Shown one piece after another: positions 18,816 through 19,119 of a DNA stretch of 64,000 nucleotides (positions within the stretch are counted from its first letter, which is position 1; the number at the start of each line of letters is the position of its first letter). The position numbers and the translations under genes are program-made. The DNA comes from Escherichia coli (lineage in GTDB: Bacteria > Pseudomonadota > Gammaproteobacteria > Enterobacterales > Enterobacteriaceae). The notes beneath the pieces were generated by a model. That model searched no databases. It was not told where the DNA came from and worked only from the letters and a program-made list of their open reading frames with translations. The stretch lies in assembly GCF_003018235.1 (NCBI RefSeq), contig NZ_CP027437.1; one strand, 5' to 3'.

Positions 18816-18892
18816 GTGCGCACAGATTAAAATTATGTATGCGCACACATCAATACTTAACATCTCGTTTTTTTTGCTGTATTGTGTGCGCC
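18816..18892. promoter_or_regulatory. operator-like GTGCGC repeats in divergent control region
   Basis: tgtgcgcaca 18816-18825, tgcgcacaca 18840-18849, tgtgtgcgcc 18883-18892, between divergent genes. Confidence 0.45.
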
Positions 18893-18921
18893 CATAAAGT
18901 CCATTTAAGTAAGGTGCATCA

Positions 18922-19119
18922 ATGTCTAGCGGTAACACAAACAACAAATCAGCAAAGAAAAATATTCGATTCCCACATGAGCTTATAGATGGAATTGATG
19001 CCAGCGTTGAACAAGAAAAATTAACTAATCCTAGTGCTAATTTTTCCGCATGGGTCTTGGATGCCTGTGGACGCAAATTAAAATATGAACAGCGCCGCAA
19101 GGCCAAAGAATCAGAATAA
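18922..19119 (+). CDS. small DNA-binding regulator, ribbon-helix-helix-like
   Basis: 65 aa; KNIRFPHELIDGIDASVEQEK resembles a strand-helix-helix start; AAGGTG ribosome-binding site. Confidence 0.45.
   Translation: MSSGNTNNKSAKKNIRFPHELIDGIDASVEQEKLTNPSANFSAWVLDACGRKLKYEQRRKAKESE

Follow-up and report, generated by a model that had tools for sequence, protein, structure and literature searches.

A YlcI-family ribbon-helix-helix protein with allele-matched predicted operators: a candidate repressor cassette in an EcCICFT073-type Gram-negative PICI of Escherichia coli

Introduction

What holds a Gram-negative PICI quiescent in the chromosome of its host, and through which of its parts does a helper phage release it? 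In EcCICFT073, the helper phage induces expression of AlpA, an activator, and over-expression of AlpA alone has been reported to induce the island (PMC6092414). The global repressor of Gram-negative PICIs, in turn, has been described as unclear, and induction with high-frequency transfer by a helper phage is known for EcCICFT073 only (PMC6092414). The alpA gene has also been reported in the literature as required by cf-PICIs.

This question is raised by a region of divergent transcription in a 64-kb stretch of E. coli DNA, called the window below. A gene for a 65-residue protein faces away from a replication operon, and the DNA between them carries a cluster of short repeats. Here, we describe the protein, its predicted operators, their variation across related elements and the transcripts that cross the region, and we weigh the ways in which these parts could work together.

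Gene content of the island and loci compared

The island sits between phoQ (8564-10024) and ycfD. By its gene content, it is a Gram-negative PICI of the EcCICFT073 type: int and alpA are followed by a replication module and by a small packaging/head module, at a defined site and within the ~10-12 kb size class (Table 1). The leftward operon comprises Icd-like frames, a RepA-family helicase, an SSB, a PerC-like gene, and capsid, decoration and connector homologues. The lambda-E-like capsid and D-like decoration homologues have as counterparts c1499 and c1500 of EcCICFT073.

The control region was compared across 85 loci, namely the window, four annotated records and 80 IMG/VR contigs, which together hold 24 distinct YlcI proteins and ~12 β-strand sequences. 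An alignment was built from 16 representative loci that cover ~12 β-strand alleles and include Escherichia/Klebsiella-type and Pasteurella elements. RNA elements were scanned in 21 islands (20 loci and the window).

Table 1. Features of the island in the window (operators and promoters are predictions).
Feature	Position	Strand	Evidence or detail
int	20229-21479	-	
alpA, excisionase-type regulator	19666-19854	-	PHROG 2790, E=1.7e-17
eta-like stop-free frame, 504 codons	18099-19613	-	starts 52 nt after the alpA stop
intrinsic terminator closing the ylcI-orf74 transcript	19491-19527	+	-20.7 kcal/mol, z-score -3.0, then a T run
ORF2 (orf74, 74 aa), second small ORF of the rightward operon	19177-19401	+	
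ylcI-like gene, 65-aa ribbon-helix-helix protein	18922-19119	+	ORF, HMM matches, model
O3, weaker predicted operator TGTGTGCGCCCATA	18883-18896 (10-mer TGTGCGCCCA 18885-94)		repeat search and alignment
P_R, predicted ylcI promoter	18857-18885	+	TTAACA, 17-nt spacer, TATTGT, TG extension
P_L, predicted leftward sigma-70 promoter	18826-18853	-	-35 TTGATG 18853-18848, 16-nt spacer, -10 TTTAAT 18831-18826
O2, predicted operator GTATGCGCACAC	18836-18849 (10-mer TATGCGCACA 18838-47)		repeat search and alignment
O1, predicted operator, core TGTGCGCACA	18813-18826 (core 18815-24)		perfect palindrome, 12 bp as CTGTGCGCACAG
leader hairpin, 13 pairs, between O1 and the Icd-like start codon	18753-18786	-	fold energy -17.5 kcal/mol
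first Icd-like frame, first gene of the leftward operon	18519-18716	-	own ATG 18716; NCBIfam phage_ICD_like, E=3.8e-10
isrK/seqA-like RNA element with intrinsic terminator	18457-18533	-	Rfam RF01394, 63.5 bits vs gathering 50
C4/CI-type antisense immunity RNA	18345-18432	-	Rfam RF01695, 78.4 bits vs gathering 45
RepA-family helicase, replication module	15916-17325	-	
major capsid protein, lambda-E-like homologue	12743-13798	-	
decoration protein, D-like homologue	12396-12731	-	

A YlcI-family ribbon-helix-helix protein

The 65-residue protein (MSSGNTNNKSAKKNIRFPHELIDGIDASVEQEKLTNPSANFSAWVLDACGRKLKYEQRRKAKESE) is encoded on the plus strand behind a Shine-Dalgarno sequence, AAGGTG, at 18911-16, five bases upstream of the ORF. 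Its gene is separated from the start of the first leftward ORF by 205 bp (18717-18921), and the leftward operon that begins there reaches the RepA-family helicase, as the preliminary description of this locus had stated in calling the small gene divergent from a replication operon. The protein belongs to the YlcI/YnfO family, scoring 59 bits against NCBIfam YlcI_YnfO_N (NF041551; cut-off 30), and matches Pfam PF13132 (DUF3950; E=1.6e-6) and PHROG 949 (E=1.4e-27), which is listed as function unknown. PF13132 is carried by 113 of 115 database relatives, spread across Enterobacterales, none of which has a functional name. In the searchable literature, DUF3950, YlcI and YnfO have incidental mentions only and no functional study, and no functional study of RHH proteins in PICIs was found.

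An AlphaFold model, computed from a 49-sequence alignment with moderate confidence (pLDDT 76), displays an extended N-terminus and helices at 19-33 and 41-64. When two copies were joined by a flexible linker, the resulting pseudo-dimer model (pTM 0.72) placed a strand at residues 10-18 in both copies and none elsewhere. The predicted order, a β-strand at residues ~10-18 and helices at 19-33 and 41-63, is the N-terminal strand followed by two helices that defines a ribbon-helix-helix (RHH) fold. As judged from where the strands lie, the two would pair with each other in the model, as in an RHH ribbon. The best structural matches of YlcI are the RHH antitoxins TacA, CopA, ParD, VapB and MazE. 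A Foldseek search with the pseudo-dimer model returned no significant match, and sequence searches of solved structures with YlcI and its family profile gave insignificant hits only. The family HMM matches and the strand/two-helix models thus uphold the earlier assignment of the protein as RHH-like.

Across 46 distinct ylcI sequences, column entropy is 0.79, 0.61 and 1.22 bits at codon positions 1, 2 and 3, respectively. The order 2 < 1 < 3 is that expected for coding on the plus strand, indicating that ylcI is a real coding sequence. The second gene of the rightward operon, orf74, encodes a product that matches no family in NCBIfam or PHROG; its alleles reassort, and it was not detected in 19/85 loci (L021, L024, L026, L029 and L002 among them).

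Predicted operators and divergent promoters

The intergenic DNA carries three repeats with a GTGCGC core, one of them a perfect palindrome, as had been claimed from inspection of the sequence: TGTGCGCACA and its two variants all fall within 18815-18894. A search of the whole 64 kb for TGTGCGCACA at up to one mismatch returns three matches, exactly O1, O2 and O3, within 80 bp. The hexamer GTGCGC is rarer in the window than expected (41 found vs 63.6 expected), yet four occurrences fall within 76 bp here. Of 300 dinucleotide shuffles of this DNA, 2 produced a three-copy repeat of this quality, and the triplet also outdid shuffles in most related alleles. O1 and O2 are spaced by 23 bp in the window, and in two sister loci (L017 and L018) O2 is itself a perfect TGTGCGCACA.

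These sites overlap two predicted promoters. The predicted O2 fills the spacer of P_L, and the predicted O1 covers the edge of its -10 element and the predicted start site near 18819; bound YlcI should therefore shut off the operon of Icd-like, replication and head genes. The predicted O3 overlaps the 3' end of the P_R -10 element and the predicted ylcI start site near 18892, from which negative autoregulation would be expected. P_L has a weak -10 element in the window allele (TTTAAT); with T as the second base of this hexamer, it was missed by a consensus promoter scan of the region.

Two other palindromic or operator-like sequences were considered. The perfect 14-bp palindrome AGTATGCGCATACT at 20197-20210, just past the int stop, shares the TGCGCA core. 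It is present alike with the KKNIRF, TTVRI and VAARV alleles of YlcI (named for the β-strand; see below) and travels with the int/alpA module; it is therefore not YlcI-specific and was rejected as a fourth operator. Separately, an O3-like sequence, GTGTGCGCC (18442-18450, within 18442-18453), lies between the isrK terminator and the start of C4, beside a TACAAT hexamer. It could be a C4 promoter with an operator-like site or a product of chance, and chance is probably the better explanation; in L071, which has another YlcI allele, the C4 region is unrelated in sequence to that of the window and gives no comparison.

Site cores follow the YlcI allele

The triplet of sites was recovered by unsupervised search in every allele. 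In most of them, the distance from the ylcI ATG is -105 to -114 for O1, -78 to -88 for O2 and -31 to -41 for O3; the exceptions are VAARV, with a third site at ~-65, and L046, in which search and alignment place the sites differently. The O1-O2 spacing is likewise 23 bp in most alleles, and 25-36 bp in L003, L047, L002, L026 and L001/L031. In the alignment, the sites follow the pattern (A/G)GTG, a variable core, then CAC. O2 is adjoined by GTCAA, which reads on the bottom strand as TTGAC(G/A), a near-consensus -35 element: it is TTGACG or TTGACA in 13/16 aligned loci, TTGATG in the window, TTGAAG in L001 and TTGCGG in L031. A TAnnnT-like hexamer lies 16-18 nt past it (TATAGT, TATAAG, TATTAT, or TTTAAT in the window). 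On the top strand, an extended -10 element, TGnTAT.GT, overlaps O3 and is conserved in the 16-locus alignment.

The core varies between alleles and is common to the sites within one locus. For the four main alleles, it tracks the adjacent YlcI allele in 74/74 loci, with no exceptions: KKNIRF with GTGCGC (18 loci), VAARV with GTGTTRAACAC (41), TTVRI with GTGTATTTCAC (13) and LKARV with GTGTGGCCCAC (2). The L024 protein is 67% identical to that of the window, yet it has the same β-strand, and the same GTGTGCGCACAC core stands in otherwise different DNA. The β-strand alone does not predict the core, as MKNIRF in L046 goes with GTGTATACAC.

Other genes of the island do not follow the sites. A single YlcI allele occurs together with five or more ORF2 alleles and several alpA alleles, and vice versa. 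In a direct comparison of the window, L001 and CFT073, the Icd-like protein hardly varies although the operators differ. AlpA, ORF2 and the Icd-like protein were accordingly rejected as specificity factors, which leaves the operators and about 50 N-terminal residues of YlcI as the exchangeable unit. As the YlcI N-terminus and the sites are <120 bp apart, physical linkage may account for part of the perfect association. On this comparison of sequences, YlcI most likely recognizes the three GTG-N(4-6)-CAC sites beside its own gene, and the protein and its sites would be exchanged together as a specificity cassette, much like the immunity region of a phage.

Three loci depart from the single intact cassette. 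Two tandem ylcI cassettes with different alleles are present in L006 (3001 and 3760; KKNIRF and TTVRI) and in L031 (2261 and 3001; VAARV and TTVRI), and in both the operator motif of the second allele was matched upstream of the extra copy; in L006, the long antisense frame described below is open across both cassettes. In L020, a 23-bp deletion at ~2895-2925 fuses O1 and O2 into one site, so that a site is lost, and YlcI has an E20G substitution in the invariant PHE motif. This cassette may be decaying or derepressed.

An RNA layer on the leftward transcript

Downstream of P_L, the leader folds into a 13-pair hairpin followed by a conserved sequence, CUAACCACCAACGAU. Among 17 islands, 8 of the 13 pairs change on both sides, and the covariation score was reached in 0/500 shuffles. 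RNAalifold recovered the hairpin only in part, and the pairs were therefore counted on a hand-drawn 13-pair structure. The first Icd-like frame follows; the same annotation is present in homologous islands.

The isrK and C4 elements stand between the two Icd-like frames, within the leftward transcript. The C4 loop UCCUUUAUCG is complementary over 10 nt to 18310-18301, covering the Shine-Dalgarno sequence of the second Icd-like ORF, and over 8 nt to GAUAAAGG (18492-18485) in the isrK element. As in the antisense-RNA immunity of P4 and P1, C4 and isrK thus lie on one transcript, with a loop complementary to flanking targets. They were found in 3/21 islands scanned, the window being one of the three, and the L081 island, which has the CFT073 allele, contains no C4 or isrK at gathering score. 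This distribution makes the RNA layer optional and rules it out as a universal part of the switch. A further Rfam motif, int-alpA (RF02996), was found on the minus strand of L002 (7069-7135), L024 (5286-5355) and L026 (5137-5202); it was not reported in positions 17500-20500 of the window by a scan with E-values up to 5.

A stop-free frame antisense to the cassette

The 504-codon frame that begins behind alpA crosses orf74, ylcI and the operator region in antisense orientation, continues over the two Icd-like frames with the isrK and C4 elements, and ends with the second Icd-like ORF. Such a frame, 190-570 codons long, occurs in 85/85 loci. In the same stretch, each of the remaining minus-strand frames is usually open for only tens of codons; the two exceptions reach 142 and 152 codons. 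Between 18717 and 19613 of the window, these two frames contain 18 and 24 stops and the long frame 0, and a stop-free frame appeared in 0/20000 shuffles of this segment. For at least four alleles of alpA, the first start codon of the long frame lies 4-57 nt past the alpA stop. The frame stays open in 86% of synonymous recodings of ylcI; the YlcI protein sequence is thus largely compatible with an open antisense frame, and the constraint falls mostly on orf74 and the non-coding parts. The ylcI transcript is fully antisense to the frame, and its terminator faces alpA. In the deposited annotations of Pasteurella phage Pmp7 and of vB_KppS-Ant, ylcI is absent and the long antisense ORF is listed in its stead (L002, 4435-5109, and L003, 6997-7971, both on the minus strand).

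The frame appears to be the equivalent of eta/kil in P4, where translation keeps transcripts from terminating. Its extension from alpA through the whole cassette suggests a P4-like bypass of the RHH-controlled promoter by alpA-driven transcripts.

A proposed circuit

Taken together, we favor a reading in which YlcI, an RHH protein, represses P_L and its own promoter through an allele-specific, exchangeable cassette embedded in a P4-like circuit that can be bypassed, and we give it a probability of about two in three. YlcI dimers would occupy O1 and O2 and occlude P_L; at higher YlcI concentration, O3 would be filled as well, limiting further synthesis of the protein. In the window island, YlcI would act alongside the P4-type C4/isrK RNA. 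Induction need not remove YlcI: helper-induced transcription of alpA would start upstream and read across the cassette on the strand opposite to ylcI. Translation of the long frame could protect this transcript from termination while it opposes ylcI transcription en route.

More tentatively, these steps may amount to two programs that exclude each other and use the same stretch of DNA, in which the frame has to remain free of stops. During quiescence, YlcI, together with C4 where it is present, would block P_L; upon induction, translated alpA transcripts would escape termination and silence ylcI convergently. We hold this fuller scheme to be possible, though doubtful in its entirety.

The locus had been proposed to be a lysogeny-type switch that keeps the island silent until a helper signal arrives. 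The regulator/operator part of that proposal is sustained by the conserved positions of the sites over both promoters and by the cores that track the allele. The role assigned to a helper signal fares less well: in EcCICFT073 the helper acts at alpA (PMC6092414), a second layer of isrK/C4 RNA is present, and a stop-free frame passes through the cassette. YlcI is a plausible maintenance repressor, and nothing marks it as a helper sensor; published data place induction control at alpA and not at a repressor, which counts against the favored reading.

Alternative explanations

YlcI might bind these sites and yet not chiefly silence the replication operon: an autoregulated ylcI-orf74 operon could interfere with alpA read-through by convergent, antisense transcription, as a toggle, or YlcI could tune the promoter of the C4 RNA without shutting it. 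The fully antisense ylcI transcript, with its terminator pointing at alpA, would suit interference; P_L is the apparent source of C4, and its full shut-off would remove the RNA immunity; and the equivalent promoter of P4 has been described as constitutive (PMC10111431). However, the two best sites lie on P_L and not on the ylcI promoter, and the operator layout is conserved in all 21 islands, of which three contain C4/isrK, which makes interference or tuning an unlikely principal function. Alternatively, the repeats could be operators of another factor, such as AlpA, the Icd-like protein, a helper repressor or Cro, or a host protein, with YlcI a mere neighbor. The pairing of YlcI with the sites derives, after all, from sequence comparison; PHROGs label the Icd-like family 'transcriptional repressor', and a YlcI homologue in lambda makes cross-talk with a helper conceivable. 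Against this, alpA alleles reassort against the site types, the Icd-like protein is nearly identical in three directly compared islands with different sites, and its label was probably inherited from an early P4 annotation in which an ORF overlapping the CI RNA was named 'cI gene product'. With a match between site type and adjacent YlcI allele at every one of the 74 loci, a foreign factor appears very improbable.

The resemblance of YlcI to RHH antitoxins, and a gene order in which a small RHH gene precedes a second small gene, would also fit a toxin-antitoxin or addiction module, with YlcI as the autoregulating antitoxin and the 74-residue ORF2 product as the toxin. A type II system is recognized by an identifiable, constantly linked downstream toxin, and ORF2 is neither, for it matches no family, reassorts freely and is missing from the detected genes of 19 loci; moreover, the strongest sites lie over the divergent promoter and not over the cassette's own, and this idea appears very improbable. 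There is still less reason to regard ylcI as no gene at all and the long minus-strand frame as the real coding strand, of which the plus-strand ORF would be a by-product. Annotators of Pmp7 and vB_KppS-Ant did choose minus-strand ORFs, and that frame is open at all loci, but the codon-position pattern favors the plus strand, the family HMMs match its product, which models as RHH, and the Shine-Dalgarno sequence and promoter are conserved, with PGAP annotating ylcI in E. coli genomes. On the codon-position pattern and the HMM matches, a spurious ORF was rejected, and we assign this option a very small chance.

Comparison with known systems

Divergent promoters under the control of an RHH repressor have precedents. 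In phage P22 immI, the RHH repressors Mnt and Arc act at the divergent Pant and Pmnt promoters. The island resembles immI in its small RHH protein, in predicted operators that lie in the spacer or over the start sites of close divergent promoters, and in an accessory immunity region where, as proposed here, autoregulation is combined with repression of the operon on the other side. It differs in that the P22 repressors have no detectable sequence relationship to YlcI, that an antirepressor is controlled there whereas the Icd-like/replication operon of the satellite is the target here, and that the GTG...CAC sites of the island number three, measure 12-14 bp and have cores specific to the allele.

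The likeness to P4 extends over the whole region: int, an alpA/vis homologue with a long frame at its end, an internal promoter, isrK (seqA), C4 (CI) and an Icd/Kil-like C-terminus. The P4 immunity region comprises vis, the nested eta/kil frames, P_LE, seqA, CI RNA and seqC, with the RNAs in the same order inside the eta frame. In P4, transcripts from the internal promoter are terminated via CI/seqA pairing, and translation of eta from the upstream promoter prevents this termination (PMC10111431). By analogy, we infer that P_L corresponds to the P4 internal promoter P_LE and that YlcI would be a protein immunity factor for it. In P4, however, eta contains neither operators nor a divergent gene for a protein, and immunity is RNA-only; in the island, an RHH gene, its promoter and the operators are placed antisense within the long frame, and most related islands have no C4.

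Stl/Rpr, the master repressors of Gram-positive PICIs (SaPIs), offer another parallel, as a divergent regulator beside the PICI replication operon that is proposed to keep the island quiescent. Stl proteins are larger helix-turn-helix repressors, whereas YlcI is a 65-residue RHH protein. Stl/Rpr is inactivated by binding a helper-phage protein, and the known helper input in the EcCICFT073-type family is induction of alpA (PMC6092414).

Within the DUF3950 sequence family, the window protein is joined by E. coli K-12 YlcI (DLP12), YnfO (Qin) and an ORF at the right end of lambda; the lambda copy lies near cos, without a divergent Icd-like operon. EcCICFT073, the prototype, occupies the same chromosomal site on the phoQ side and shares the order YlcI, Icd-like, DUF4222, replication, SSB, PerC, capsid and decoration. 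Its control cassette is homologous and keeps the same scaffold, with YlcI/YnfO divergent from the Icd-like gene across ~200 bp. EcCICFT073 differs in its LKARV allele, in its core, AGGTGTGGCCCAC, and in a primase where the window has a RepA-family helicase.

Significance

As far as the literature is searchable, the DUF3950 identity of such a regulator, its setting in a Gram-negative PICI and its antisense embedding in an eta-like frame are undescribed. The analysis puts forward a concrete repressor candidate, one that the prototype EcCICFT073 itself carries, and gives exact operator predictions for four common alleles. It also links PICI control to the P4 scheme, in which an immunity-governed internal promoter is bypassed by translated alpA/vis read-through. 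If borne out, the proposed activity would be the first function for DUF3950/YlcI/YnfO, whose members occur throughout Enterobacterales and also in lambda. Should the two-program scheme also be true, YlcI would be the maintenance repressor sought in Gram-negative PICIs, and its cassette an exchangeable immunity determinant that is sometimes stacked.
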